A DNA stretch of 64,000 nt, taken from NCBI GenBank assembly GCA_045605805.1, contig JAZUQR010000008.1:43253-107252 (forward strand), read 5' to 3'. Of this stretch, positions 3 to 62,349 are shown piece by piece; positions within the stretch are counted from its first letter, which is position 1; every line of letters starts with the position of its first letter. Source of the DNA: Alphaproteobacteria bacterium (GTDB lineage: Bacteria; Pseudomonadota; Alphaproteobacteria; CAAHEQ01; UBA3637). Made by a program: the position numbers and the translations under genes. The notes beneath the pieces were generated by a model that did not search any database, was not told the origin of the DNA, and saw nothing but the letters and a program-made list of their open reading frames with translations.

Positions 3-776
3 CAATCCAATACAGGTGCCGCGATCGCATGGGGAATAATTGACAGTGGTGGTGTTTGGACTCAAATTATAACATCCGGCAATGGTTATTGTGTCGGTCT
101 AAGGGACGGGTATGCCTATTATGCAACCAGCCAGGGTTCAAATGGGACAATGATTATCGGGCATCTTGTGCAGTTGGCATCAAAAACCGATTATACCCTT
201 TACGGCGGAAACTCAAACTATATTTATGCTTGCAATGGCAATACCTGTGACGTGTATCCGATTAATTCAATTGTCAATGGTTATACAACGGGGCCATCTA
301 CTACATATACATTCCCCGCCAATATTGTGCAAATTTCTGATAGTTATTTTCTGCTTGAAGACGGTAGGATGTACAGTAATCAAAGCCTTATCACTTCAGA
401 TGTAATTGCACTAGGATCAGGATTCTTCTTGAAGGAAGATGGTGTTTATGTTTTATCAACAAGAGTATTTGCAATTGATGGTTCTTTTCAGACCATGTCC
501 GGAAATATATTGTTTTCCGGGGCCGGTTCAATCCAAAGGTCAACAGTTTACACTGTTGAAAATCCGGCGACAAATTACATTGCCTACAAGAAAGTGAGCC
601 TCCAGGATGCTTCAACAATTACAGCCACAACATCGACAACCGTTACGGCTGGCGGAACAACGTATACAAGGGATCTAAGTAAGGATTCCACATTTACACA
701 GCCACCGGACGATTTGAAAAAACAAACCCCAACCAAGTGGCAATTTTTGGAAATGATCAGCAATATAGGAGATTAA
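3..776 (+). CDS. Phage tail-associated protein, 3' part (5' end outside the window)
   Basis: Frame of ORF 150..776 stays open back to position 3; G/S/T/Y-rich beta-type sequence directly upstream of the tail-tip genes. Confidence 0.6.
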   Translation, partial: QSNTGAAIAWGIIDSGGVWTQIITSGNGYCVGLRDGYAYYATSQGSNGTMIIGHLVQLASKTDYTLYGGNSNYIYACNGNTCDVYPINSIVNGYTTGPSTTYTFPANIVQISDSYFLLEDGRMYSNQSLITSDVIALGSGFFLKEDGVYVLSTRVFAIDGSFQTMSGNILFSGAGSIQRSTVYTVENPATNYIAYKKVSLQDASTITATTSTTVTAGGTTYTRDLSKDSTFTQPPDDLKKQTPTKWQFLEMISNIGD

Positions 777-5703: not shown

Positions 5704-5736
5704 ACCTCACAGGTTCTATCCCGTGAGGTTTTTTGT
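5704..5736 (+). terminator. Intrinsic terminator after hup
   Basis: ACCTCAC/GTGAGGT stem followed by a T run. Confidence 0.7.
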
Positions 5737-5764
5737 TGCATTTTAATCTGCCATGGGTTATAAT
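5736..5764 (+). promoter_or_regulatory. Sigma70-type promoter for the structured leader and SLOG gene
   Basis: TTGCAT-17 bp-TATAAT. Confidence 0.7.
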
Positions 5765-5798
5765 GACCGAGCTTGGTTAGTTATGCCCAATCAGGCTA

Positions 5799-5988
5799 GG
5801 ATTCGATAAATCCGATTATCAGTATGGGCAGAAGGTATTTCTGTCGGCATCCGCCATGGATACGCCGAAAGATTGTGTTAGTTCATGGGTGGATGCCTGC
5901 CGAATAAGGTATCCACCCCAATAAGGCAGGACTATTTCTCATACTGATAATAGTTTATCGACATCCACCCGCCTCATCACAGGTGGGT
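5799..5988 (+). ncRNA. Structured leader RNA, copy 1 (C4/CI-like architecture)
   Basis: ATTATCAGTATG 5815-5826 pairs with CATACTGATAAT 5940-5951; TCGATAAA pairs with TTTATCGA; internal hairpins; homologous copy near 61.6 kb with compensatory changes. Confidence 0.6.
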
Positions 5989-6022
5989 AAATTGTTGATA
6001 TGGGGCGTATGAAGGGTGGATC

Positions 6023-6463
6023 ATGGGCAAGATATGCTCGTTTTTTGGACACAGTCATTTATATGGACAATCGGACCGTATTGCCCAACAATTAAGGCAA
6101 GTCATTATCAATTTAATCGGACAAGGTGTTGATACCTTTTACGTTGGCAATCATGGTGAGTTTGATATTTTTGCCAGCCGGGTAGCCTATGATCTGAAAA
6201 GTTTATATCCTAACATCCAAATCATTGTTGTTTTATGTTATCCAAATGAGTTGCAATACTTAAAATGTGCCTTCACGGATTTTTTGATGCCTCCGGAAAT
6301 AGAAGCGGCCCCCAAACGGGCTTGCATTGTAACTCGCAATCATTGGGTTGCTGATAATTCTGACTACATCGTCTGCTTTATCAAATACAAAATGGGTGGA
6401 GCCTATGCGGCTATCGAATACGCCCAAAAGCACCATAAACAGATTATAGAGGTGAGAGCATGA
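6023..6463 (+). CDS. SLOG-superfamily protein (DUF1273/YpsA-like)
   Basis: CSFFGH, FYVGNHGEFD, RNHWVADNSDYIVC and GGAYAAIEYA motifs. Confidence 0.75.
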   Translation: MGKICSFFGHSHLYGQSDRIAQQLRQVIINLIGQGVDTFYVGNHGEFDIFASRVAYDLKSLYPNIQIIVVLCYPNELQYLKCAFTDFLMPPEIEAAPKRACIVTRNHWVADNSDYIVCFIKYKMGGAYAAIEYAQKHHKQIIEVRA

Positions 6464-6498
6464 ACCAAGCAGGCATACGTCACATTTGGGCTGAACGG

Positions 6499-6527
6499 TT
6501 GACTTCGCAAGGGAAGACGGATAAAAT
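6499..6527 (+). promoter_or_regulatory. Sigma70-type promoter upstream of avd-TR-RT
   Basis: TTGACT-17 bp-TAAAAT. Confidence 0.6.
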
Positions 6528-6562
6528 TGGCCCGGTAAAAACTCATAAAGAATGGTGTAAAA

Positions 6563-7156
6563 ATGCGTAAAGATCAAGTCAGTCGTAATCAAAGAATTCA
6601 TATGCCCAGGAAGGTAGAAAACGTTTCGGGGCAATTAATGCTACCTGTGGATGTTGCTTCTGTAAAGCAAGCATTTGCAACAGCTAATGACAAACGATTT
6701 AAATATGCTGATGCGCTGGATCAAGCAACCAAAGAAGATCCGGAATTGCATCAAATTTCAACAATTCCAAGCGATTCAAGCGAATTAATTGTTATAACGA
6801 AACTTAAAAAACTGGGGGCTTATATTCTAGCCGTGACGGTTAAATCGCCGGCCAAATTTAGACCTGTTTTTATCAATCGGATGCAAAATTACAGCTTGTC
6901 GGCTTTGGAAAATTTATTGAATGCTAATTTTATTCGGATGGATAGCCCCGAACATAAAGCCCAGCGAGAAAAGCATCAAACGGATGCACTCATTCAGTTA
7001 AAAATGGTGGCATATGTTGCAATGCTGTCGGAAAATGCAAAGTGTATTTTGATGAGGCAGTATAAACAAATATCAATTCAGGTTGGTGAAATTATTAACC
7101 TGATTATGGCATGGAAAAAAAGTGATGATAAACAATGGCAAACAAAAAAGTTTTGA
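6563..7156 (+). CDS. avd: DGR accessory variability determinant (Avd-like four-helix bundle) with N-terminal extension
   Basis: ELIVITK...KSPAKFR..FINRMQN...AN...EIINLIMAWKKSD pattern; sits directly before TR and RT. Confidence 0.85.
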   Translation: MRKDQVSRNQRIHMPRKVENVSGQLMLPVDVASVKQAFATANDKRFKYADALDQATKEDPELHQISTIPSDSSELIVITKLKKLGAYILAVTVKSPAKFRPVFINRMQNYSLSALENLLNANFIRMDSPEHKAQREKHQTDALIQLKMVAYVAMLSENAKCILMRQYKQISIQVGEIINLIMAWKKSDDKQWQTKKF

Positions 7157-7195
7157 ATCCGAAAGGGTCAAAAGAGGGAAAGTTGATAATGCGTA

Positions 7196-7314
7196 TTGTG
7201 CCTCTTGGTCCGCGTCTTCAAATGAAAATGAAAACGTGCGTTGCGTCAACTATAAGGGCGATAAGAACTGGAATAACACGAATAAACGTAAAATCTCGGC
7301 GCGCCCCGATTTGC
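7196..7314 (+). repeat. DGR template repeat (TR)
   Basis: 119-nt ungapped match to 8822-8940; all 23 differences are at TR adenines; rich in AAC/AAT codons. Confidence 0.97.
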
Positions 7315-7569
7315 TTTTAAGGAGAACAACAAAATGTGGTCGGCAAAGACACAGATCTCTGAAACAAGCCAGATATGTGGATTTTAGAAAAAATCCGCCC
7401 GTGCTTAAAGCAAAGGAAACTTTCTCTTTTCTAACCGCTGTCAGCTTAATGCTCAGTGCGGTGGAAGAAGTAAAAATGCAAAGTTTGCGTTTTATGGGGT
7501 ATCACATATATTGACACGTCTTGTTTTAATATATTATCGGGTACCCCTTTTTTACAACAAAAGAGAACG

Positions 7570-8619
7570 ATGAAGATAGAAGAGATATTTACATTTGAAA
7601 ACTTGGTTGCGGCCCACAAAGCATGTCGGCTGAGTAAGCAACATAAACGAGGAACAATCATGTTTGAAATTGAATTGGGGCGTAATGTCACCAATCTGGT
7701 CAAACAATTGACGGCTAGAACATATCGTTTAAGTCCTTACAGATCCTTTACCATTTATGATCCGAAGAAAAGATTAATTGAAGCGTTACCCTACAAAGAC
7801 AGAGTGGTTTTAATGTGCTTTTGTCAGCATTCGGTAGCTCCCCGGCTAGAGAGACACCTGATTTATGACAATGCCGCTTCACGCAAAGAAAAAGGAACGC
7901 ATTTTGCGGTAGAGAGATTGCATTCATTTATGCGAAAGCTGTACATCAAAAACAAAACAAATCGGATTTATTTTTTGAAATGCGATATCAGGAAATATTT
8001 TCAAAGCATCAATCATGAGATTTTATTGGAACTGTTGGCCAAGACCGGTTTTTCGGCTGATGAGATGTGGTTTTTAAGGATGATCATTGAATCACACGGT
8101 TCCATCGGGTTGCCTTTGGGTAATCAGACCAGCCAATGGTTTGCCTTGCTTTATTTGAACGGAATGGACAGGCTGATTAAAGAACGTCTGCGTATGTCCT
8201 GTTATGTGCGCTATATGGATGATTTTGTTATCCTAAGCGAAGATAAAGCCAAATTACAGCTGTGTAGAAAGCAAATTGATGAATATGTCAAAGGATTAAA
8301 GCTGTCCTTAAATCAAAAGACACAAATCGGGCTGTTATCGGATGGTATTGATTTTTTGGGATTTAACCACAAATTATCGGCCACAGGTAAGATTATCAAA
8401 TCTTTGCGTGGATCGGCCAAAAGCCGCCAAAGAAAATACCTGAAAACCATCCGTCATTACTATTTGAATGATGTCCTGGATGATGAGTACCTAGACGTCC
8501 GTTTAGCCTCGTTTCGCGGGCATTTAAAGGGGACTAAGAACTGGATCCATATCAGCAACCGCTTGGCTTCCTTAAAACACGAGAAACGCCGTACAAAAAA
8601 AATTGTTGCAGAACAATAA
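7570..8619 (+). CDS. DGR reverse transcriptase
   Basis: IYDPKKRLI, KCDIRKYF, GLPLGNQTSQ (DGR-type SQ), YVRYMDDF and GIDFLGF motifs; no maturase or endonuclease domain. Confidence 0.95.
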   Translation: MKIEEIFTFENLVAAHKACRLSKQHKRGTIMFEIELGRNVTNLVKQLTARTYRLSPYRSFTIYDPKKRLIEALPYKDRVVLMCFCQHSVAPRLERHLIYDNAASRKEKGTHFAVERLHSFMRKLYIKNKTNRIYFLKCDIRKYFQSINHEILLELLAKTGFSADEMWFLRMIIESHGSIGLPLGNQTSQWFALLYLNGMDRLIKERLRMSCYVRYMDDFVILSEDKAKLQLCRKQIDEYVKGLKLSLNQKTQIGLLSDGIDFLGFNHKLSATGKIIKSLRGSAKSRQRKYLKTIRHYYLNDVLDDEYLDVRLASFRGHLKGTKNWIHISNRLASLKHEKRRTKKIVAEQ

Positions 8620-8634
8620 ATTGTATGATATACT
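8606..8634 (+). promoter_or_regulatory. Promoter of the DGR target operon
   Basis: TTGCAG-17 bp-TATACT with extended -10 TG; AGGAGG RBS before ATG 8664. Confidence 0.6.
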
Positions 8635-8663
8635 GGGAGTATAAGCTAAATTAGGAGGCTCAT

Positions 8664-10613
8664 ATGGACTTTACGTTTTTGAAGGAAGATCAGATATGGG
8701 GCGATGGTGCCCTAGATGTAATGAAGCGTTATGGCACGAAGGTTGCGCCAACGGATCTGACAGTCATATTGGGTGGTTATATGACTGGTGGAGGTGATCG
8801 TACTTCTGAAGATGATCTAACTTGTGCCTCTTGGTCCGCGTCTTCAGATGGACATGGAGGCGTGCGTTGCGTCCGCTGTGAGGGCGATGAGCACTGGGGT
8901 GGCACGCATGGACGTGTGATCTCGGCGCGCCCCGCTTTGCCTCCATCGGAGGCATCTAAAATCAGCCCGAGCGAAGCGAGAGCTATCGCTGGAATCCGCG
9001 TAGCGGAATATGGGGAATACCCGCAAACGGTCGCCGATGAACGCACCAGCGAGAAATTAGAAAGATTACATGATTCAAGATCTCTCCGTCCGACCGGAAA
9101 AAATTACACATTTGATTCAGTTGGTTTAACCGATTATGACACGTCTTTTAAGGCCACATCCTATCAGGAATATGAAATGGATGGCAAAAGGTATATCCGC
9201 GTTCCTGGACGGCCTGCTGACGACGATAGCAAACTATCTACTGGGGAACAGGTAGAGTCCGGAAAACCCTACTGGGTTGAGGTCCAACCGATAGAATGGC
9301 TGATGGATAGAAGCGGCACAATGGTCGCCAAAAAATGCTTATTCGCCGGTATTCAATTTGATACAAAGAGCTCATATGACGGTGACTTCTCTAAAACGTC
9401 CATGAAACACTATTTGGACACTTATTTTGCCAAAGAAATGGAGCCAACCGGACGTGTGGCCGCAAGAACGGTATCAAGAGACTATGAAGAAGAGCCGGAA
9501 AGAAAAGAACCCGTTAAAAAGAAAGAACCGACAGCCAGACAGAAGAAATACGGGATCGAGGTATCTGATGAGCCTATGCCCGTCAAGGACCAAATAAACT
9601 TCTATATTCAAAACGGAATGAGCTTCATGCTCCATGGCCCGTCCGGTGTCGGTAAATCACAACGTGTGAAAGAAATTGATCCGGATTTGACCTCAATTAC
9701 GCTGTGTAACGGAATTTTGCCTGAAGATGTTATCGGTAAAACAATCTATCCAAACGGCGTGGGAGCCGATGGGGCCTCCGGTGGTGTTTGGGTGCCGCCT
9801 AAGTGGTACACGGATTTGTGCAGAAAATGCGAAACAGAACCGGACAAACAGCACGTCTTATTTATCGATGAAGTGACCAATGCGCGTGAAACAACACAAA
9901 GTTTGATCTATCACGTAGCGTTGGAAAAATCAATTGCCCAGGGCGTTGGCAAACTGCCTAATAATGCTGTGGTCGTATTGGCCGGTAACAGCAAGGAAGA
10001 ATCAGGAGCCGCTTATAACATGCCGGCCCCGTTGTTCAGACGTTTAAGCCATATTTACTTGGACTTGAATATTCAGGATTGGTTGGAATGGGGCTCGGAA
10101 CACAGCAAGAGCCATCCGGAAGATCCGGATCGCTTAAACATCCATCCATTAGTCGCCAGTTTTGTGGCAACCTACGGACGGCAAGTGTTCTATTCCGAGT
10201 ATGATGAAGAAAACCCCGGCAAGTTTGCACTTGACCCACGAAAATGGGAAAAAGTATCAGATAAAATCTACGCTAATAAGGGTATGATGCGCCGTGAGAT
10301 TTTGGAAGCTGATATCGGGCCTGAGTTGGCGGCCAGTTTGTTGTCTTATGCTAAAAATCCGCCGCTATCCCTGGAAGAAGTGATTGAGGGCGAATATACC
10401 CGCGAGGATATTCCTACGGGACAGGATGCCCGTTTGGCGTTGGCGTTGAGTTTGCGTCATGCAACACCGAAACAAGTCGGGAAAGTACGTCAATTTGTTG
10501 AAACACAGTTAGGCGCAGAAAATCGTGCGATTTTTGACTCTGTTTGGGTGGGCAAGGATGATACACGCGCCATGCAGATTGCCACTTTACATAACTTAAA
10601 GGGAGGAAGATAA
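8664..10613 (+). CDS. DGR target: N-terminal variable lectin-like (DUF6273-like) domain fused to a MoxR/AAA_5 ATPase
   Basis: VR at residues 54-92; YGEYPQT and PIEWL motifs; Walker A GPSGVGKS, Walker B VLFIDE, LAGN, PLFRRL. Confidence 0.9.
   Translation: MDFTFLKEDQIWGDGALDVMKRYGTKVAPTDLTVILGGYMTGGGDRTSEDDLTCASWSASSDGHGGVRCVRCEGDEHWGGTHGRVISARPALPPSEASKISPSEARAIAGIRVAEYGEYPQTVADERTSEKLERLHDSRSLRPTGKNYTFDSVGLTDYDTSFKATSYQEYEMDGKRYIRVPGRPADDDSKLSTGEQVESGKPYWVEVQPIEWLMDRSGTMVAKKCLFAGIQFDTKSSYDGDFSKTSMKHYLDTYFAKEMEPTGRVAARTVSRDYEEEPERKEPVKKKEPTARQKKYGIEVSDEPMPVKDQINFYIQNGMSFMLHGPSGVGKSQRVKEIDPDLTSITLCNGILPEDVIGKTIYPNGVGADGASGGVWVPPKWYTDLCRKCETEPDKQHVLFIDEVTNARETTQSLIYHVALEKSIAQGVGKLPNNAVVVLAGNSKEESGAAYNMPAPLFRRLSHIYLDLNIQDWLEWGSEHSKSHPEDPDRLNIHPLVASFVATYGRQVFYSEYDEENPGKFALDPRKWEKVSDKIYANKGMMRREILEADIGPELAASLLSYAKNPPLSLEEVIEGEYTREDIPTGQDARLALALSLRHATPKQVGKVRQFVETQLGAENRAIFDSVWVGKDDTRAMQIATLHNLKGGR
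8822..8940 (+). repeat. DGR variable repeat (VR)
   Basis: Copy of the TR with 17 A>G, 5 A>C and 1 A>T changes altering 16 codons. Confidence 0.97.
8938..8954 (+). promoter_or_regulatory. Hairpin/cruciform at the VR 3' end (DGR target-recognition element)
   Basis: TGCCTCC-ATC-GGAGGCA perfect 7-bp stem after GC-rich TCGGCGCGCCCCG; absent after the TR. Confidence 0.7.
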
Positions 10614-12968: not shown

Positions 12969-15551
12969 TTAATATAAATTAGCCTCAAAAATTTGATAAA
13001 GGTCAAATTCTATACCGTCAACGCCTCTGATGAGGTCTATTTCATCTTCGGCGGCGACATCAATTCGGGCCTGATCTAAAAACAAGCCTTCTTCTTTTCG
13101 TTTAAGCTCTTTTTCAGCGACATTCAGCTGTTTTTGAATTCTTAATTCCGTGAGCCGGTCTGAAGCGGAGGATATTGTCTCACGAATTTTTTTAACCTCT
13201 TGCCTTGCTTCTGAAATGTTTTGCTCTAGGACAGATTTTTGGCGGCTGGCTTTTATTTTAATTAAATCAACATCCGTATCAAACTTTTTGGTATAATCAT
13301 TTACATAACGTTCCTTAAGGTCGCGCTGGATGCGTGTATCTAACAAATCTCGCGATGAACCGCCAGTCGTTTTTAGCCAATACGGATTCCTCTTTTCTTC
13401 AGCTATAAATTCACTAACCGGTTGATTGATAATTTTTTGGCATTCCTCATCAGTCATGAGCCGTCCATCAGGTGTCGTACCAACCAAAATGTCATACTCT
13501 GATAAATACTGCCGGCGGCGATTACGTAAGACGATGTTATAGAACTTTATATTGCATTTTTCTGTTGGCTCAACGGTTTTAATGTCCGCTTTGTCAGAGC
13601 ATGATATTTCTTGTAAAATACCACGAACAAGCACGGATGTTAAAGTGATGCGCCCTGCGACCGGCTTAAAATCTTTACTCATTCCATAAGTCCTGCGACC
13701 GGTGTATGGCACATTTCTTGTGCCGGTGTAATAGTAAAACATGTGCGGCAATTCTTCATCGTCCGGTAAAGTCAGCGTTTGATTGAAGTCATCGATCACA
13801 TATTCCGGATGCTTTGTCGCAAAATAAAACTTCACAACTTCCCATAAATCTTTATTCAAGAACTCCGCTTGTTCCTCTATGTATTTCGGCGAAACGGACA
13901 CTTTCTCGGCAATATCTTTGGTAAAAGTGGTAAAGAGAGAACTTTCAGCCGCTGAAACAATGCGCTCATTCGGTTCGCGGTTTACTTCCAAGTTTGTTTC
14001 CATATCTGCGCGTATATCACTAAGCGTGCGGCGTTTTTGCAAAACATCTTCCAGTTTAACATCAAAATTACCGACAATATCGTCCGACATACCAAAAATG
14101 CCTTCAAATTGCAGGGTACGCTTGTTTATCAGCTCCAAAATACGGACATCCGAGATATTTTCTTTGCTTAAAAGATTGATAACTAAAACATCGGATTGCT
14201 GGCCTTGTCGGTGGCAACGACAGATACGCTGTTCCATTTCCACGGCGTTATAAAGTAAATCATAGTTAACCACAACTGGACAATATTCAATATCCAAGCC
14301 TTTGGCCATAGCATCACTACAAATTAAAATTTGCAAATCTTTTTCTGCCCGAAAACGTGGCAGAGCATCATTTTCTGTATGCTTGATGACATTATATCCG
14401 GCGGTTTTAAGCAAATTTGCCAAAACTGGCACGGTGGCAAGATTATCCACGAACACAATCGCTTTTTGTGTTTCTTTACGCAATTTTAAGTGTGCAAATG
14501 TCGTTTTAATAGCTTTTAGAAATTCTTCCATTTTGGCGGTTTGCGTAATTTTTGCCGCCATATCGCGCATTGATTCCAAAATAACACGTTCATCGCCTTG
14601 TGTTCGCTCAATAGGTGCTTCCAACATTGTGGCAAATGCTTGTGGTGATGAGGCCAAAATGTGGTAAAACATCAAAGTCAGTTGATAATTATCCATTTGC
14701 GGATAAGCCTGCTTTTCAGCTAAATTTAAGTATTTTTCGGTTAAATCATAAATTTTCTTTTCATCATCTTTTGGTACGTAGTTCAAAACAATCGGTAAGC
14801 GACGTGTAAAGTTTACATACTGGCTCGCTTGGCTTTTAAGGGTACGAAAAGCGAATTGTGATACCCAATTTGATAGTTCTGGATAGTTTTCGGGCTTTCT
14901 GAAATACCGGCGATAAAAACTGTCAGGATCCGGCAGAACGCTTTCATCAATAAAATGTATCAATCCGTAAATATCCATGATACTCATTGTGATCGGCGTT
15001 GGCGTTAAAAGCAGTTTGAAAGCATCGCCGACAGCACCCTTAATGGTTGCAACTGATTTATTGTCCGGCTTAAAAAGAAAATCAGCCTCATCAAACACGG
15101 CCAAATCCCAACGAATGCTTTTGACTTTTTCTGCCTCACGGATAACATCATCGTATGTGACAAGGCAAATACCTTTACTATCGGCAGTATATTCGGCCCA
15201 TTTGATAACCGGCAAGGTGAACTCTTCATCAAGTTTTTGTTGCCATTGTGCCATAAGGTTTTGGGGTAAAACAACCAATATATGTTCTTTTCCCTCGTAC
15301 CAACGTTGAACTACTACAAGCAAAGCCTCATAAGTTTTACCGAGTGAGCCTTCATCACATAAAATGCAACCTTTAATCAACCTAGATCGCAGGGCAAAAC
15401 GGGCCGCGGCTATTTGATAAGGTAATACTTTAATTTTTGAAGAAGCATAAACCGCCAGTAAATTATCGTCATCGCGAAAACTGGCCAATCGTCTGGCTTC
15501 CACCATAGCGGCAAATTCGGATACAAAACGATACGGCTTAGTCTCTTCCAT
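12969..15551 (-). CDS. SNF2-family helicase-like protein with degenerate motifs
   Basis: LPYQ, CDEGSLGKT, FDEAD, LLTPTP, VVNYDL and EQRICRCHRQGQ motifs. Confidence 0.8.
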   Translation of the reverse strand: MEETKPYRFVSEFAAMVEARRLASFRDDDNLLAVYASSKIKVLPYQIAAARFALRSRLIKGCILCDEGSLGKTYEALLVVVQRWYEGKEHILVVLPQNLMAQWQQKLDEEFTLPVIKWAEYTADSKGICLVTYDDVIREAEKVKSIRWDLAVFDEADFLFKPDNKSVATIKGAVGDAFKLLLTPTPITMSIMDIYGLIHFIDESVLPDPDSFYRRYFRKPENYPELSNWVSQFAFRTLKSQASQYVNFTRRLPIVLNYVPKDDEKKIYDLTEKYLNLAEKQAYPQMDNYQLTLMFYHILASSPQAFATMLEAPIERTQGDERVILESMRDMAAKITQTAKMEEFLKAIKTTFAHLKLRKETQKAIVFVDNLATVPVLANLLKTAGYNVIKHTENDALPRFRAEKDLQILICSDAMAKGLDIEYCPVVVNYDLLYNAVEMEQRICRCHRQGQQSDVLVINLLSKENISDVRILELINKRTLQFEGIFGMSDDIVGNFDVKLEDVLQKRRTLSDIRADMETNLEVNREPNERIVSAAESSLFTTFTKDIAEKVSVSPKYIEEQAEFLNKDLWEVVKFYFATKHPEYVIDDFNQTLTLPDDEELPHMFYYYTGTRNVPYTGRRTYGMSKDFKPVAGRITLTSVLVRGILQEISCSDKADIKTVEPTEKCNIKFYNIVLRNRRRQYLSEYDILVGTTPDGRLMTDEECQKIINQPVSEFIAEEKRNPYWLKTTGGSSRDLLDTRIQRDLKERYVNDYTKKFDTDVDLIKIKASRQKSVLEQNISEARQEVKKIRETISSASDRLTELRIQKQLNVAEKELKRKEEGLFLDQARIDVAAEDEIDLIRGVDGIEFDLYQIFEANLY

Positions 15552-15554
15552 AAT

Positions 15555-18500
15555 TTACACCGTTTTCTTAAATTCCTGCCAATTTCTGACCGGCTGTTCG
15601 GAGTAGATAACATTATCAAGAGCTTTGAAGTGCTGTGCGCCGCAATGAATCTTTTGTTGTTCTTCCGGTCGCAGGCCATAGAACGAATCAGTTCCTTTGG
15701 TTTCAAGCACGAAATAAAGTTTCTGTTCGCCATTTTTCTCTAAATATACGGCCCAGTCCGGATTATAGGTTCCAATAGGTGTATCAATCTTAAACCGGCT
15801 TGGAATTTTAAAGAACATTTTAACGTCAGGATCCTCATCCAAAGCCACGGCAAACGGCTTTTCAACCGTGCTACTGTCATAAATAACATAGTCATAAACG
15901 CTGTTTTTAACCGCGACAGCATTACGATCGAGGTTAGCAATCAATTCTTCACTCGAGAAAATCTCTTGCACGGCATATTCTTCGCCGGCCAATTTAATAT
16001 ACTTAATTCCATCAATGGCCAATGCATGGCGATTGCGCTGGATGATCTCCAAAACCTTTTCGTAAAAGTCTTGTGGGTTCTTCAAAAAGTCTCCGGCCCG
16101 GCTGCTTTCTTGAATGATTTTATTCACGGTCGAACGTTTCAGCAATGTTTTGGTAGAGATTAAACGCAAAATATCCGGCAGAACATCATAGCTCTTTTCC
16201 AGGTTTTGGGTAAACATCGCACCGGCTTGGGCGGTTACGCCTGACTTTTGAATATCAACCGAGGCTGTCTGACTGAGTAAACGGGCCGAAGCAATCTCCG
16301 GCATCTTACGAATATCCTTGATACTGTCGGCGATCAGTTTATCTAAATCAAACTGGACCCGATAAGTGGTCTTTTGCTTAATTTTATTCCACAACTCCAT
16401 AAATTCCGGTGATAATAGCGCACGTTTATTGAGTTTTACCGTTACATCCTTGGAAGCATCGCGGATGTTGAGCTTATTATCAGCCTTGTTCATGGACTGC
16501 AAAATTGCACGTTGCGCGGCTTTTGACCAACGCTCACTTAAATTGAGTGTACCGGCCGCAAGCTGTGCCTTCATGGTGTCTTTAATCTTGTTCTTGCTGT
16601 CAATAACCTTTTTATCTTTCAGCTCATCCATAATCGCGGCCGCTTCCTCATACGAGAAGGTCTTTTTCTCAACAACAGTTTCTTTATATGTTGTATTAGC
16701 AAGCGCGGCAACCGACACCGGCTTTGAAGTTTTGATCATATCTTGAACATGTGTTTTTACAGGTTCAGGCATGGGGATATTTTCGATTTTAATTTCTTCC
16801 GGCTTAACTTCCGGTTTAATGTAGCCACCATCATCAATTAAGCCATATTTTTGTAAATCTTCAACAATAGCGGTGGCCTCGCTTTCGCTGACTCTACGTT
16901 CAACTTCTACTTCTTCATCGTAAGAATAGCCGACAAGCATATCCAACTCGAAAACGCCAAATTTAACACCGGTTTCATCTTCAATTTCTTTCTGTAATTT
17001 ATCGGCAAACTCGGCAAAACTTTCGTTGGCGATAACGTGCAAAACATTGATGTTCTTATCCTCAATCCGTTCTCCGTCCTGATTAACGCAAAGTCTTAAG
17101 CCACGACCGATTTTTTGACGGCAGGTAAACAGCGATTTTTGCTCGATCAGCGTGCAAACTTGGAAGACATTCGGATTATCCCAACCTTCTTTTAAGGCAG
17201 AGTGCGAGAAAATAAAGCGGAGCGGACATTCAAACGACAACAGCCACTCTTTATCTTTCATGATGGTATTGTAGGTGTCGTCATCAGCCTGCGTATCGCC
17301 TTTGGTATCCTTATATTTACCTTTTTTATCTTGGGAGAAGTAACCGTTGTGTGCTTTGTTTACGTCTGTATCGAACTTGGTTTTTAGCTCAGCGTAACGT
17401 GGTTTATTGATCAGTTCGTTATAGCATTCTTCGAACATTTTGGCATAAATACCTTTGCCGCCATCCTCAGTGCGGTATTTTTTAACCTCATCAATAAAGA
17501 ACAGGGACAACACCTTAATTCCCATATCAAAATAGCGTAATTCCTTATCTAAATGGGTTTTAATGGTCTGATAAATTTGCGCACGTTTCAAAACTTTTTC
17601 ATCAACGCTACCGATGGCTTTACCCAGGGCAACATATTCCGAGTTTGCAAATTCCACACCCTCAAGGCCTGATGTACAATCAATCCCTGAAACAACATAG
17701 CCTTCATAAATTTTGCGATGGCCGGATTTGATAAACAGATCATCGTCCGGTTTAACCGTTATAACTTTACGCGTAATATGAGCGTTGTCGTCTTCCACAT
17801 CAATTTCCAGTTTGGCCGAAAAGCCGTTGGCGTTTGAAACGTTCTTTAAGGCGATATAGGGTTTGTTTGAATCATTGATAACTGAATTTGAAATAACGCA
17901 AATCTGTTTTACTAATCCCAGTTGATACGCATCAACTGGTGTTAAACGATAGACAAGATTCTGCTTTTCGCGGTGGGTAGCGGAATAACGCAACACGCAC
18001 AGCGGATTAAGCATCGCGATGGCTTCCTTTGCCTTTGGCGTATTATCAACACTTTGCGGTTCGTCAATAATCACAACCGGATTTGTGTCCTGAATATAGC
18101 GCATAGCGGTTTCGCCGTTCAGTTTATCTTGCTCTTGATTGATAATGTTTTCGGCCTTTTTGAAAGCATCGATGTTGATGATCATGATTTCAATGTTGCT
18201 GGAAGTTGCAAAGGCTCGCACATCAGAGAGCTTGGCCGAATTATAAATAAAGTAGCGGTACGGCACACCGTCATATTGATTTTTGAAATACTCTTCCGTA
18301 ACCTGAAACGACTTGTTTACACCTTCGCGAATTGCTACACTCGGTACAACAATGATGAACTTTGTAAAACCGTAGCGGTGGTTAAGCTCCAAAATTGTTT
18401 TTGTATAAACGAAAGTTTTGCCGGTTCCGGTTTCCATTTCAATTGAAAGCGGCACCGCCTTTATGCCGTCAATGTTGGTTTGCGGCAGAGAATGAGCCTT

Positions 18501-18713
18501 TTGGATTGCATGAAGATTGTTGTTTATTGTCTCTTCATCCAACAGCAACTTGTTACCGAACCCAAATTCATTTTGCAGGAAAGAAGCCTGCGCGGAGTTA
18601 TCGGCGATTGAAAAAGTCATGTTGGCTTTTTCTTGGCCCTTGAATAACTCAACCGCCGCATTCGTGGCATCAGTTTGAAATTCTTGATTCTTAAACTTTA
18701 GTTTCATGCTCAT
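15555..18713 (-). CDS. res: Type III restriction endonuclease Res subunit
   Basis: IEMETGTGKT, IIDEPQ, RYSATH, SHSALKEGWDNPNVF and YNPDW...LETKG nuclease motifs. Confidence 0.93.
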   Translation of the reverse strand: MSMKLKFKNQEFQTDATNAAVELFKGQEKANMTFSIADNSAQASFLQNEFGFGNKLLLDEETINNNLHAIQKAHSLPQTNIDGIKAVPLSIEMETGTGKTFVYTKTILELNHRYGFTKFIIVVPSVAIREGVNKSFQVTEEYFKNQYDGVPYRYFIYNSAKLSDVRAFATSSNIEIMIINIDAFKKAENIINQEQDKLNGETAMRYIQDTNPVVIIDEPQSVDNTPKAKEAIAMLNPLCVLRYSATHREKQNLVYRLTPVDAYQLGLVKQICVISNSVINDSNKPYIALKNVSNANGFSAKLEIDVEDDNAHITRKVITVKPDDDLFIKSGHRKIYEGYVVSGIDCTSGLEGVEFANSEYVALGKAIGSVDEKVLKRAQIYQTIKTHLDKELRYFDMGIKVLSLFFIDEVKKYRTEDGGKGIYAKMFEECYNELINKPRYAELKTKFDTDVNKAHNGYFSQDKKGKYKDTKGDTQADDDTYNTIMKDKEWLLSFECPLRFIFSHSALKEGWDNPNVFQVCTLIEQKSLFTCRQKIGRGLRLCVNQDGERIEDKNINVLHVIANESFAEFADKLQKEIEDETGVKFGVFELDMLVGYSYDEEVEVERRVSESEATAIVEDLQKYGLIDDGGYIKPEVKPEEIKIENIPMPEPVKTHVQDMIKTSKPVSVAALANTTYKETVVEKKTFSYEEAAAIMDELKDKKVIDSKNKIKDTMKAQLAAGTLNLSERWSKAAQRAILQSMNKADNKLNIRDASKDVTVKLNKRALLSPEFMELWNKIKQKTTYRVQFDLDKLIADSIKDIRKMPEIASARLLSQTASVDIQKSGVTAQAGAMFTQNLEKSYDVLPDILRLISTKTLLKRSTVNKIIQESSRAGDFLKNPQDFYEKVLEIIQRNRHALAIDGIKYIKLAGEEYAVQEIFSSEELIANLDRNAVAVKNSVYDYVIYDSSTVEKPFAVALDEDPDVKMFFKIPSRFKIDTPIGTYNPDWAVYLEKNGEQKLYFVLETKGTDSFYGLRPEEQQKIHCGAQHFKALDNVIYSEQPVRNWQEFKKTV

Positions 18714-19405
18714 TTACCTATTTTATAAATTACATATTTAATTTCAGGATTCGAAAACTGCTCCTTAAAGAAAGATTCCATTTTCTTGTCATTATTCACA
18801 ACTTCTTTAGGCAATTGATTAAAATTTAATATTGTTTTATCCATCATGCCTACATCATTTATCAGAATACGATGACGCTTGTCTTCGTTCTTATTCCAGT
18901 AGAGGATCGCATACCTTATGGAGCCGGAAATAACCTCATTATCAAACGTAACGCTGTGCGTTGTAATGGTTTCCAACTTTTTCTTTTTTTTGATTTTACC
19001 AGTAAACGGGATAAAAATCGTCTTTTCGGGAGTTTGAACTCTAAAATATATGTCTTTATGCATAGGGATTTCAGGCTCATAGGAGTATCTTTTCCCCATA
19101 ATGTTATATGCATGAAAAGGTTCCAACAAAAATGGCTCATCAAAAGTTTTTAGTGTCATTAGGTATTTATTGTTGAATACGACAGAGATGGCCGTAATCG
19201 TTTTCGGAGAGAGCGTTTTATTGAATATCGTGCAATGTAAACCACTCCCTTCAAAAGAATTATGATTTTCTCCGAAAGATGTGATTTTAAGATTTTTTGA
19301 AAAGTGGTAAAGCCAAAAGCCATAAGCAGTTAAAACAAATATCCCCAAATTACCAAGGATGGATGCTACTTTCTCAACAGTTTCCAAATTCAAAAAATCA
19401 CACAT
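18710..19405 (-). CDS. Hypothetical protein with N-terminal TM helix, between mod and res
   Basis: 231 aa AT-rich ORF; hydrophobic segment near residues 13-34; stop overlaps res start. Confidence 0.7.
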   Translation of the reverse strand: MCDFLNLETVEKVASILGNLGIFVLTAYGFWLYHFSKNLKITSFGENHNSFEGSGLHCTIFNKTLSPKTITAISVVFNNKYLMTLKTFDEPFLLEPFHAYNIMGKRYSYEPEIPMHKDIYFRVQTPEKTIFIPFTGKIKKKKKLETITTHSVTFDNEVISGSIRYAILYWNKNEDKRHRILINDVGMMDKTILNFNQLPKEVVNNDKKMESFFKEQFSNPEIKYVIYKIGK

Positions 19406-19414
19406 CGTCCACCT

Positions 19415-21280
19415 CTACAGCAACATAATTTCCACGCCACTGTCTTTGCTTATGTAATAAGCGTTGGATAGGGCCACATCATCTTTGAACGCTTCTTCAG
19501 CCGCGACAATTTTAGCCGGCGATAATTCGCACATCGCGGTTACGTCTTCCGGTGTGATACCGCCATTTGAACCGTCCAGGCAAACAAGAACCAAGCCTTC
19601 TTCGCCAATGGAATAAACTTTGCGGCCGTTCAAATTATTTTCTGTAACCTTATAAGTCTCCGGAATACCAAGCTTCAGCATAACTTCATAAACCACATCT
19701 AATTCGGAGCGGTCAATTTTAAGACTCTTTATCATTGTATCGAAGCGTTCTTTCAAAATCTCTGTCTCGGAGCTTTCCAGCGGTGTATCATCCCACTTAA
19801 CCAAATTTGATGTATCCAGTTTCAAAACCTTAAAGCCAACATCCACATCGGCGTTTTGCTCTTTGATTTTTGCACCGGCGCGGCGGATACGCTCTTTACC
19901 GATTTCACAAATGTTTTTATATCCGGCTTTGAAAGCTTCTGACTTTTCGTCCGTCAGTTCAGGTAACTGCACCATAATAAATTGACGTTTGCCTCCATCT
20001 TCTGCGTTGAGTTGCATAACCGCATGGGCGGTGGTGGCCGAACCCGAGAAGAAGTCAAGAACAATGTCGCCATCAGACACTTTTGACATTAAAATTAGGT
20101 CATTTACGAGATTGACTGGTTTTGCATAATCAAAATATGATTTTTCAATTTGAAATAATTTTTTAATTTCTTCAGTACCCTTTGCATTTATGTATTCGTC
20201 TTTGAATATTGATATAAATTGTTTTTCTCGATTTGAATCATCGCGGATTTTTTCGTAAACAATGTAAGTACCATCGGAGCGTTTTTCAAAGATTACATCT
20301 CCCTCGCTGACTTTCTTATGCATCTTTTCTTTACCTAAACGCCAACGACCCTCTGTCCCATCATTTCGAATAGGATATACATCTTCGCCATTCGGACCTT
20401 TTATAGGAAAATACATAGATGGAGAATCTTCTCGTCTTGAACCTGCGCCCCATTTGTTTAATTCGCGACCTTTCGCATATGCACCTTTTTCATCTTGAAG
20501 ATTTAGCGTCCTACCTTCTACCTCTACACCACCAAATTCAACATCATTTATATTCTTAGAGTAGATGAGAACATAATCGTGCGTAACTCTGATGTATTTA
20601 GATTGACTGCCACCTTTAATGGCTTCTCGTGTAATTTGCGCAATAAAGTTTTCTTCTCCGAATACCTCATTACAAATTTTCTTTAGGTTATCCACCTCGT
20701 TATCATCAATGCTGATGAAAATAACGCCATCGTCACGGAGCAAGTTGGCGGCCAAACGTAACCGCGGATACATCATGTTCAGCCAGTTGGTGTGATAACG
20801 TCCCATTGTTTCAGGATTAGACTTGGTGGTTTGGCTGGTAATTTCTTTATATTTTGCAAGCGGATCTTTGAAGTCATCTTCATAAACAAAGTCATTACCG
20901 GTATTATACGGCGGATCAATGTAAATCATCTTAACTTTGCGATAATAAGCCGTTTGCAACAGCTTTAATACTTCTAAATTGTCGCCCTCAATATACAGAT
21001 TATTGGTATTTTCAAAGTCCACACTTTCTTCAACACACGGGCGGAGTGTACCTGTAGAACGTTTTCCGGCGATACGCAGGCACTCTGATTTGCCTTTCCA
21101 TTCAAACTTGTACTTTTCAAAGTCATTGTCGATATATTCGCCACATAGTGACAACAGTTTATCAATATCCAGCTTGCCCTCAACAAAACATTGCGGGAAG
21201 ACGGCTTTTAAGCGTTCCTTATCAGTTTCTGCCACATCCAAACTCTTGCCGTCTAATTTCTTAATATTAAGTTCTTGCAT
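19415..21280 (-). CDS. mod: Type III R-M DNA methyltransferase Mod subunit
   Basis: EGDNLEVLK, IYIDPPYNTG, HTNWLNMMYPRL and LDFFSGSATTAHA motifs. Confidence 0.95.
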   Translation of the reverse strand: MQELNIKKLDGKSLDVAETDKERLKAVFPQCFVEGKLDIDKLLSLCGEYIDNDFEKYKFEWKGKSECLRIAGKRSTGTLRPCVEESVDFENTNNLYIEGDNLEVLKLLQTAYYRKVKMIYIDPPYNTGNDFVYEDDFKDPLAKYKEITSQTTKSNPETMGRYHTNWLNMMYPRLRLAANLLRDDGVIFISIDDNEVDNLKKICNEVFGEENFIAQITREAIKGGSQSKYIRVTHDYVLIYSKNINDVEFGGVEVEGRTLNLQDEKGAYAKGRELNKWGAGSRREDSPSMYFPIKGPNGEDVYPIRNDGTEGRWRLGKEKMHKKVSEGDVIFEKRSDGTYIVYEKIRDDSNREKQFISIFKDEYINAKGTEEIKKLFQIEKSYFDYAKPVNLVNDLILMSKVSDGDIVLDFFSGSATTAHAVMQLNAEDGGKRQFIMVQLPELTDEKSEAFKAGYKNICEIGKERIRRAGAKIKEQNADVDVGFKVLKLDTSNLVKWDDTPLESSETEILKERFDTMIKSLKIDRSELDVVYEVMLKLGIPETYKVTENNLNGRKVYSIGEEGLVLVCLDGSNGGITPEDVTAMCELSPAKIVAAEEAFKDDVALSNAYYISKDSGVEIMLL

Positions 21281-61173: not shown

Positions 61174-61595
61174 TTTTTCCCAATCCAGTATTTTGAGATA
61201 AAGAAATTATCTGTCATTGTTTTTTGAATGCGGTTGTATTGATGGCTTTTGTTGTAAACTTTGTTATTGTTTTTGCCACATATTGTGTTTTGTTTTTGGC
61301 CATCTTATTTTCCTTTTAATTTAAGCAGAGGTGAAAAATTGAGGAGAGTTTATCCTATTTTTGTCCAAAAGTCAATAATCTTGACAAAAATCTTTTTGGC
61401 GAGGGGTATCTTGCAAGGCGCGAGCTGATTTCTTGGTGCTGATTTAAAAGAATAAAGATAATCCGAATGAGATATGGTAATTCTTGTGGTATTTGCACTC
61501 AGCAATAAATATAAAAGCTCTTTTGGGGATTTTTTTATAAAAAGAGCTTGCAGTTTGATATAAAATGCAGTAAACTTAGTTTGCAAGGTGTTTAA

Positions 61596-61772
61596 TGTGA
61601 TGCCATCTTGTGGGACTTAGAACTCCCAAAATTAGACAGCCGAATTGTTTCGGTTTTGATATGCCAGCCCCTTGGCTGGATGACGGCAGAATAAAGCCGT
61701 TGGCTGAATATGCCGTACTATTTTGTCTAATTATAGGTTCTAACGTCCAGTCGCTTTCGCATCACAGCGATT
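61596..61772 (+). ncRNA. Structured leader RNA, copy 2
   Basis: Promoter TTGCAG-17-TAAACT (61548-61576); AATTAGACA/TGTCTAATT and GGAC-TTAGAACT/GGTTCTAACGTCC stems; motif order shared with 5799-5988. Confidence 0.6.
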
Positions 61773-61791
61773 TTAAACGAAAGGAACTAAA

Positions 61792-62349
61792 ATGGGTGAA
61801 ATGTATTTTCCTGGTGAGGAACCAGATAATGTGGAAACACTCTATGATAGAGCTGGGCATCTGATTAAAAGATATAGGGCTAAAAATGGTGGAACAGGAC
61901 TTACAGAACATCATTATCGGCAAGGTGAGGGGAGCCCCTTGATGTGGGCTGACTATTGGTCAGATTATCGGGATAAAACAAACCGAGAAACATTATTTTT
62001 TGAAGGTAAAGCAGGAGAAGAAACCCCCTATTTGAGCCGTATTTATCGTCAAAATAGGTTGGTAAAGGAAACAGGCTTAGGAGAAAGGCTTCGTGTGCGT
62101 TATAGCGAAGAGTACGAGTATTGCGATGGTGAAACAATGCCCATAAGTATTCGACATGAAGATTTTGATGAAAAAGGAAACTCCTTATCTGTGATAATAA
62201 AAGATAAAGATAACCCTTTTGGAAAAGTAATTAGTCCCAAAAAAATCTCGAAGATTATGAACACTTTGAAAAAGGCAGAGCAAAACGGTATGCAAGCAGT
62301 AAGATCTGGTAAAATGAATCAAAGAATAAACGAAAGGAGCATAAGATGA
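61792..62349 (+). CDS. Hypothetical protein
   Basis: AAAGGA RBS; 185 aa; basic C-terminal tail. Confidence 0.7.
   Translation: MGEMYFPGEEPDNVETLYDRAGHLIKRYRAKNGGTGLTEHHYRQGEGSPLMWADYWSDYRDKTNRETLFFEGKAGEETPYLSRIYRQNRLVKETGLGERLRVRYSEEYEYCDGETMPISIRHEDFDEKGNSLSVIIKDKDNPFGKVISPKKISKIMNTLKKAEQNGMQAVRSGKMNQRINERSIR

Follow-up and report, generated by a model that had tools for sequence, protein, structure and literature searches.

The window, by which the whole 64,000-nt stretch analysed is meant (Alphaproteobacteria bacterium, GCA_045605805.1, contig JAZUQR010000008.1, positions 43,253-107,252 of the forward strand; genome G000), carries two copies of a structured RNA leader, the features of which are collected in Table 1. 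Copy 1 precedes a SLOG-like gene and a DGR, and is itself preceded by phage-tail-like genes (DUF1833, NlpC/P60, GpJ) and HU. Judged from its sequence, the DGR is genuine; TR and VR differ at 23 positions, every one of which is a TR adenine. The VR falls close to the N-terminal end of a 649-aa ORF that has weak AAA-ATPase matches; the next gene encodes a DUF2201 vWA-peptidase. Beyond the DGR cargo, the minus strand encodes an SNF2 helicase and type III restriction Res and Mod genes (12969-21280). A terminator-like hairpin with a T run covers the first SLOG codons at 6023-6051, near the end of an RNA contig at 6028, and may be due to chance. At copy 2, an inverted repeat at 61531-61553 overlaps the -35 box in G000 and in genome G019; in genome G004 the rplQ terminator lies there.

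Table 1. Leader features and following genes in the window (positions of the window; +, forward strand).
Feature	Position	Strand	Basis
Copy 1 promoter-like site, TTGCAT-17-TATAAT	5736-5764	+	Sequence, family-wide pattern; not in consensus scan list
Copy 1 5' hairpin	5771-5796	+	Predicted fold
Copy 1 upstream target (a1-like 5799-5810, b1-like 5815-5828), complementary to core linker and P3 loop	5799-5828	+	Best among 160 upstream regions, score 43.5; zipped in predicted fold
Copy 1 anti-P1 strand, able to sequester P1 5' strand	5846-5855	+	Sequence pairing, family comparison
Copy 1 core: P1 5887-5895/5962-5970; P2 5896-5901/5925-5930 with AATA/AATA internal loop; P3 5931-5936/5949-5954	5887-5970	+	Covariation; model R2, 77 bits
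Copy 1 core variable loop (about 5937-5948) and linker (5954-5961)	within 5887-5970	+	Covariation
Subtype-specific internal partner of P1 5' strand	5908-5919	+	10/160 copies; dominates core-only fold of copy 1
Copy 1 hairpin taking four bases of P1 3' strand, no U-tract after	5967-5988	+	Sequence, predicted fold
Partial downstream a2/b2-like tract, then repeat of P1 5' strand (6014-6021) over SLOG RBS	5995-6021	+	Downstream complementarity rank 3 of 160; weak
SLOG-like ORF, first gene after copy 1	6023-6463	+	Pfam YpsA, E 6e-6, just below cut-off
DGR: Avd-like 6563-7156, TR 7196-7314, RT 7570-8619, target ORF 8664-10613, VR 8822-8940	6563-10613	+	Pfam and TR/VR comparison
Copy 2 promoter-like site, TTGCAG-17-TAAACT	61548-61576	+	Conserved in G004 and G019
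Copy 2 upstream target (a1-like 61613-61623, b1-like 61630-61638)	61613-61638	+	Rank 1 of 160
Copy 2 anti-P1 strand	61664-61669	+	Sequence, predicted fold
Copy 2 core cloverleaf	61674-61752	+	Covariation, folding, model R2; sRNA-Xcc1 22 bits against cut-off 53
Copy 2 terminator-like hairpin overlapping P1 3' strand, short T run	61749-61774	+	Sequence; weak, out-competed in copy 2 predicted folds
185-aa ORF without Pfam family, after copy 2	61792-62349	+	Pfam scan

Traces of expression were sought in four sequencing runs, the RNA runs with 0.05-0.06 of words left out, except X3. One faecal metatranscriptome yielded a 235-nt contig that covers 5794-6028 with a single mismatch and left 6062-8700 uncovered, which fits a leader that accumulates alone; this is one low-depth contig, and contigs carry neither strand nor ends. 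A second RNA run gave pieces on the DGR genes and none on the leader, the raw-read run yielded no reads, and a run of unrecorded kind gave a contig over 5277-8531.

A dispersed family of covarying RNA leaders

A multi-stem leader at 5736-5990 had been described by an earlier sequence-only reading of this DNA, and the motifs it named were found in place. In copy 1, GGGTGGATG at 5887 is able to pair with CATCCACCC at 5962 and with TATCCACCC at 5910, and CCTGCC at 5896 with GGCAGG at 5925. In copy 2, GGCTGGATG at 61674 lies opposite CGTCCAGTC at 61744, and ACGGCA at 61683 opposite TGCCGT at 61711. Both copies fold more stably than shuffled sequences (z = -7.0 and z = -5.0 for copies 1 and 2, respectively). 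The promoter of copy 1, presented as near-consensus, agrees with the consensus at 9/12 positions and at only 3/6 in its -35 box. The second copy about 56 kb away was also recovered: a direct blastn comparison of the two copies displayed no link at E<=10, and both match a third copy on contig C24 (E 1.7e-10 for copy 1, E 4.3e-4 for copy 2). Four further copies in this genome, located through pattern, blastn and RF02221 searches, bring the total to six; they had been overlooked, as had the upstream anti-P1 strand and the a1/b1-like target of copy 1. The copy on C24 precedes a SLOG-like ORF and another (C10:7929) a pilin-like EGF/Hint protein, while two precede small lipoprotein-like ORFs inserted amid core genes, one adjoining rpoC and one between pgk and gap, as named from their translations.

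It had also been claimed that the pairings covary, and this is borne out. Across the six genomic copies, 97% of paired cells are satisfied and 18 both-side changes occur, levels reached by none of 500 shuffles; the count of covarying pairs is weaker, being equalled in 46/500 shuffles. In 109 further model-aligned matches, both-side changes appear in 21/23 pairs (0/500 shuffles), in an alignment that is fitted to the structure and contains five weak or reverse-strand rows and two rows near-identical to training copies. A real conserved structure behind the leader is thus virtually certain, and both window copies are members of one covarying three-stem RNA family. At gathering level, the Rfam scan of the window returned four tRNAs only, with no family over either copy, and the closest informative match is that of copy 2 to sRNA-Xcc1. 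Weak matches at copy 1, such as HCV_J7880 and S4-Clostridia, are far under cut-off and were taken as chance.

When genomes were searched with family models, further homologues with covariation were obtained. Model R1 detected the RNA in 33/36 other genomes of the family and in 3/24 outside it. With model R2, in counts that take in some reverse-strand shadows, it was present in 75/80 genomes of the order with roughly 750 matches, in 12/149 genomes of the other families of the class, all of 0.9-2.5 Mb, and in 0/150 of a phylum sample. Searched one at a time with R1, G013 gave 60 matches, G017 39 and G019 24, the last figure including three weak ones; the highest copy number, 60, belongs to one 1.1-Mb genome. 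A strict pattern matched at least 122 times in the genome collection, and of the 80 listed, almost all carry titles of uncultured alpha- or proteobacteria, a large number of them from animal guts. Three collection matches in Firmicutes-titled bins, situated before pilin-like genes, are probably mis-binned. Scans of viral sequences with two strict patterns gave five matches. One is a true sRNA-Xcc1 locus, another a family member and a third a weak relative; the remaining two have no model match.

Module architecture and its relation to sRNA-Xcc1

The fetched loci were parsed into 176 distinct elements, of which 160 remained once 9 failing the P3 parse and 7 without flanks were removed. The usual order of the module is promoter, upstream target, anti-P1 strand, cloverleaf core, terminator-like hairpin sharing the P1 3' strand, RBS and gene. 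The promoter pattern TTG-16..18-TAnnnT is present in 143/160, compared with about 30 after shuffling, and an anti-P1 strand of at least 7 bp in 92/160, compared with 4/159 in a control window. By alignment score, the best partner of the P3 loop and linker is the module's own upstream 130 nt in 131/160, while its own downstream region is best in 6/160, near chance; in a separate set drawn from strict-pattern matches, the corresponding values are 72/81 and 1/81. A hairpin directly follows P1 in 158/160 and usually uses 3-4 bases of the P1 3' strand, an overlap favoured by the measurement, which was made on a fold seeded with that strand; its T-rich tail is found in 115/160. An RBS with ATG follows in 136/160 at a median of 46 nt past P1, leaving scant room for a second promoter.

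The genes behind the modules are varied. The 136 called ORFs include a single-linkage cluster of 76, 11 small lipoproteins, 7 SLOG-type and 4 beta-barrel-like proteins and many singletons; a prepilin motif is carried by 44 of the 160, and Pfam families in selected ORFs comprise PilS, OMP barrel, DNA methylase, HTH, TM2 and glycosyltransferase. Copy 1 had been described as a leader upstream of the SLOG-DGR cargo; the element has no special bond with that cargo and is a dispersed multicopy module before many gene types. At 7 of 136 ORFs, a dedicated SLOG or DGR RNA is ruled out. As for antirepressor genes, clustering of the 136 ORFs and Pfam scans of selected ones brought to notice one weak Bro-N-like ORF (L184). 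The family member in front of a weak Bro-N gene lies amid prophage genes that are Mu-like, judged from their translations. After the terminator of several G013 modules (loci L048, L062, L069, L124) there is a palindromic repeat, which we take to be REP-like.

sRNA-Xcc1 is described as a trans-acting sRNA. It shares with the present family a P1-P2(AATA...AATA)-P3 core. The gathering cut-off of RF02221, 53 bits, is reached by no family member tested: copy 1 has no match at E<=10, copy 2 scores 22 bits, the best genomic copies 33-34, and 3/11 other family loci scanned 33-44. In the other direction, model R2 detects a true sRNA-Xcc1 phage locus at 39 bits (E 6.6e-8). The phage locus from the viral scan scores 69.6 bits on RF02221 and possesses an upstream target, a downstream target repeat and a Bro-N gene. 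On this sequence comparison we regard the family as a sub-threshold relative of sRNA-Xcc1 with C4/CI architecture, and an ancestry among C4/sRNA-Xcc1 RNAs is very likely. The C4/CI resemblance proposed earlier is accordingly upheld in the P1-P2-P3 junction, in the pairing of an upstream target by a variable loop and linker, and in the detection of the sRNA-Xcc1 member. An intermediate element (L326:1501-3108), with 43.8 bits on RF02221, 38.7 on R2 and a terminator-like hairpin, stands before a DNA methylase of type III Mod-like look.

As a control, 29 of 30 fetched RF02221 loci (L346-L375), a few of them under cut-off, were analysed in the same terms. Their own upstream target is best in 18/29, and their own downstream target best in 12/29 and among the top three in 19/29. 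The genes at true sRNA-Xcc1 loci include Bro-N, P22_AR_C or Rha, with the downstream target near the RBS. These control results give RF02221 the C4/CI layout set out in the available portions of PMC2864571 and PMC4825925, and suggest from sequence that sRNA-Xcc1 itself is a C4/CI-type leader. Against this background the family differs clearly. The downstream target is best in 12/29 true sRNA-Xcc1 loci but 6/160 modules; the T-tract or terminator tail past P1 occurs in 1/29 against 115/160, the anti-P1 strand in 4/29 against 92/160, and a T-run upstream of the core in 14/29 against 3/160. Antirepressor-type Pfam families are found in 5/24 sRNA-Xcc1 ORFs, whereas the family mostly precedes surface and accessory genes, and sRNA-Xcc1 has 1-6 copies per genome in the sample, compared with up to 60. 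The rarity of the downstream target and the frequency of the terminator tail indicate that the output was rewired, and the enrichment of anti-P1 strand and tail over true sRNA-Xcc1 indicates that these were gained rather than inherited.

Address diversity, predicted folding and proposed gene control

The loop, linker and matching upstream target form an address, or barcode, that mostly differs from copy to copy. In G013, 54 different addresses occur among 55 copies, and in tandem triplets (L106, L230) near-identical genes carry differing addresses, the tandem duplicates differing mainly there. In close within-genome paralogues, identity is 0.66 in the loop, 0.785 in the promoter spacer and 0.965 in the scaffold. 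When 171 modules were compared, pairs at least 85% identical outside the address had a common address in 1/35 cases within genomes and 8/11 between genomes, although such pairs are few, non-independent and unevenly matched for identity. By a cruder test on scaffolds alone, pairs within genomes did not avoid a common address any more than pairs between genomes (5/54 and 15/117 sharing one, respectively). In G017 (L085, L088, L089, L096-L098, L152, L153, L155, L157) and in L230, loop and linker halves of the address are mixed among paralogues, with the upstream target changed to match. One guess is that such both-side changes arise by templated repair between inverted arms.

Folding was predicted for 132 modules with a promoter, a hairpin and a good P1. 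The full leader is zipped, P1 having a probability of 0.0 and the terminator base 0.91; in the core alone, the outer pairs of P1 reach 0.86 and the terminator base falls to 0.17. A clear flip between these folds is observed in 76/132, and 56/132, including both window copies, display none. The 3' arm of the terminator covaries with the P1 strands. When a cognate core is placed on its own 5' leader, the co-fold has a median of -14.1 kcal/mol and the anti-P1 strand is paired in 119/132; non-cognate pairs lie at about 0 kcal/mol, with 40/810 sampled at -8 or below. The swapped state is nearly isoenergetic with the zipped one, differing by some 2 kcal/mol or less (-1.0 while the arm of the terminator is still missing, +2.2 once it exists). 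Masking of the target alone closes P1 in only 9/132, which speaks against a plain trigger at loop and target, and the model consequently needs an additional swap at the anti-P1 strand and favourable kinetics. The sequence-only reading had proposed a two-partner switch. The idea of a switch persists and both partners are in place; the internal partner at 5907-5918, present in 10/160 copies, is ruled out as the conserved one, a role that falls to the upstream anti-P1 strand (5846-5855).

Sequence comparison shows that the cloverleaf, the copy-specific upstream target, the anti-P1 strand and the covarying hairpin sharing P1 are conserved. The fold states, the duplex energies of core and leader and the near-isoenergetic swap together point to a default-off attenuator opened by its own RNA. 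We therefore favour, at a probability of roughly 0.5, a portable promoter-plus-attenuator module derived from C4/CI-type (sRNA-Xcc1-like) phage leaders, which would be off by default and opened in trans by its own released RNA. During transcription the nascent leader would zip its loop and linker onto its own target; with both ends of P1 blocked, the terminator would form and the gene stay off. Were the 5' leader taken out of play, P1 would close and the terminator would lose its base. The putative opener is the module's own released cloverleaf RNA, which would swap strands with a new transcript by pairing to the cognate target and anti-P1 strand there. A read-through transcript would display the cloverleaf, and processing, perhaps by RNase P as in the C4/CI analogy, would supply more opener; RNase P RNA is present. 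Differing barcodes may allow dozens of modules to work independently. The predicted folds make it most likely that the leader keeps each gene off until the RNA refolds. Conditional gating of the downstream genes is, on the whole, probable, while the odds that the module's own RNA is the trigger are about even. A trigger encoded elsewhere in G000 was considered and set aside, the best blastn look-alikes of the copy 1 target and antisense (E 0.28 and 0.98) being at chance level.

If the cloverleaf is processed out, positive feedback follows. The module might then act as an autocatalytic RNA-only toggle, in which an ON transcript makes the opener for the next and an OFF module makes none, with barcodes keeping up to 60 toggles independent; we hold this extension tentatively, and bistability itself is doubtful. 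Were it true, combinations of surface proteins could be inherited and varied within a clone without DNA change, and a phage immunity RNA, its output inverted, would underlie an epigenetic form of phase variation. Another portable leader, unrelated to the first, was noticed at G000:C3:11894-12144(-) (L339:2895-3145) and in at least 14 other places, mostly contig ends, and is full length in G000 only among the 80 genomes of the order. Its TTGACA promoter is followed by a short leader ORF containing 7-11 consecutive G, then by a hairpin, a strong terminator and an RBS, and it stands before pilin-like and other genes; the frame past the G run sets an early stop (C3, C11, C24) or a run through the terminator (C9, C14). 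The sequence has the look of slipped-strand phase variation that acts through ribosome-coupled attenuation. By analogy only, gating of the same gene class in the same genome by this poly-G leader would fit the toggle reading.

The inefficiency of target masking, together with the scaffold-only test, can also be read in favour of an attenuator that works in cis only, which a protein or ligand would open by recognising the AATA/AATA loop of P2 or the cloverleaf; barcodes would then be a neutral zipper and all copies obey one shared signal. The AATA motifs are invariant across the six genomic copies, and P2 is formed in most zipped folds and in cloverleaf folds, as such a reading would have it. 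Yet addresses diverge faster than the promoter spacer in close paralogues and are the main difference between tandem duplicates, the relatives of the family are antisense RNAs, and the gated genes are highly diverse; we consider a shared cis signal unlikely.

The mobility of the module raises another alternative, in which no regulated switch exists and a portable promoter with a small-RNA gene and leaky terminator gives low constant output, spreads by recombination and keeps its folds as inherited baggage. The promoter-to-RBS module of copy 2 is 96% identical in G004 and G019, where upstream genes differ, downstream ORFs are unrelated and dnaB is 71-72% identical, and copies per genome range from 0 to 60 within one genus. 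The three copy-2 modules are all situated at most a few kb from dnaB, and local rearrangement with gene replacement could therefore also account for this pattern; inspection by eye of the ends of the three aligned modules revealed no terminal inverted repeats or target-site duplication. Against inherited baggage, four mutually exclusive pairings (zip, anti-P1, P1 and terminator base) are kept together across more than 200 divergent modules, and the anti-P1 strand and terminator tail are the very parts enriched over true sRNA-Xcc1. This alternative is judged improbable, somewhat more so than a shared cis signal.

Copy 1 is an atypical member, with an extra internal P1 partner, no U-tract, a P1 repeat covering the RBS and a partial downstream target; the repeat of the P1 5' strand at the RBS is seen in 5/7 SLOG-type copies among those listed, a weak signal. 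The same states probably serve in this copy to reveal or conceal the ribosome-binding site of the SLOG gene, and copy 1 may act on translation, as a translational or even repressive variant. It is for this SLOG-type copy at 5736, with its partial downstream target over the RBS, that a canonical C4/CI polarity is most plausible, namely brief expression upon entry into a naive cell followed by silencing through the accumulating cognate RNA. The downstream targets of true sRNA-Xcc1 members agree with such polarity, as do the downstream rank and missing U-tract of copy 1 and the 93% identity of copy 1 and its SLOG-Avd-TR neighbours in two other genera, which is as expected for a mobile island. For the family as a whole this polarity is as improbable as inherited baggage, since the downstream target is near chance in both module sets and the default fold without the RNA is the terminated one. 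The default-off attenuator opened by its own RNA remains the preferred reading.

Comparison with known systems

C4/CI-type RNAs are immunity regulators of phage antirepressors, and C4 and CI are processed by RNase P. The supplementary figure text of PMC2864571 gives C4 three stems, antisense regions a' and b' and an a1b1 target motif, and PMC4825925, in the portion available, has P4 CI RNA pairing with seqA upstream and seqC downstream. In the accessible parts of PMC12197685 and PMC4825925 the released RNA represses in P1 and P4, and the former source relates sequence-specific addresses to heteroimmunity. The family has in common with C4 (RF01695) and P4 CI a three-stem RNA, a variable loop (b') and linker (a') and an upstream target (a1b1/seqA). 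It differs in that nearly all modules are without a downstream target (a2b2/seqC) or an antirepressor, copy 1 having the former in part, and in that the output is repression in those systems and predicted antitermination here. With the downstream target generally lost and a terminator in place, the logic of the family is unlike that of C4/CI. RF01695 had no match in the genome of the window at E<=10, nor did any other curated C4-like Rfam family match the window at cut-off.

The nearest likeness to the proposed action is IsrK (RF01394) of Gifsy-1, for which the text available from PMC4825925 describes a short RNA that activates its own read-through mRNA. As is proposed here, the short RNA shares its promoter with the read-through transcript, which it binds in trans and brings into the active fold; IsrK differs in being a 5' (seqA-like) piece that mainly activates translation of orf45-anrP at a single prophage locus. 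Rfam isrK has no match at the window copies. In pLS20 cATT, a long-range zipper decides whether a terminator forms, zipping giving the antiterminator (PMC13401043, in part), and in EGeRS1 similar leaders are repeated before variable operons (PMC8708921, in part). Both are analogues only, being from Gram-positive plasmids and, in those portions, described with neither a cloverleaf nor a copy-specific address. Tandem copies of sRNA-Xcc1 are reported in Xylella in the part of PMC12189769 available. Among the papers listed by literature searches none describes multicopy chromosomal C4-like leaders; an earlier entry may exist in the supplements of structured-RNA catalogues, and a short-motif search of two such catalogues, large supplements excepted, returned nothing.

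What emerges is a phage-derived RNA that appears to have been rewired and multiplied across the genome, with an address of its own for each leader before host surface and accessory genes, throughout an order of uncultured gut bacteria. Should this RNA act in trans, these genomes would harbour dozens of naturally occurring RNA activators of transcription that are orthogonal to one another, and perhaps a novel means of heritable phenotypic variation. The mechanism is a predicted one, and it is the scale and the rewiring that are surprising beside the C4/CI-type RNAs known from phage immunity.
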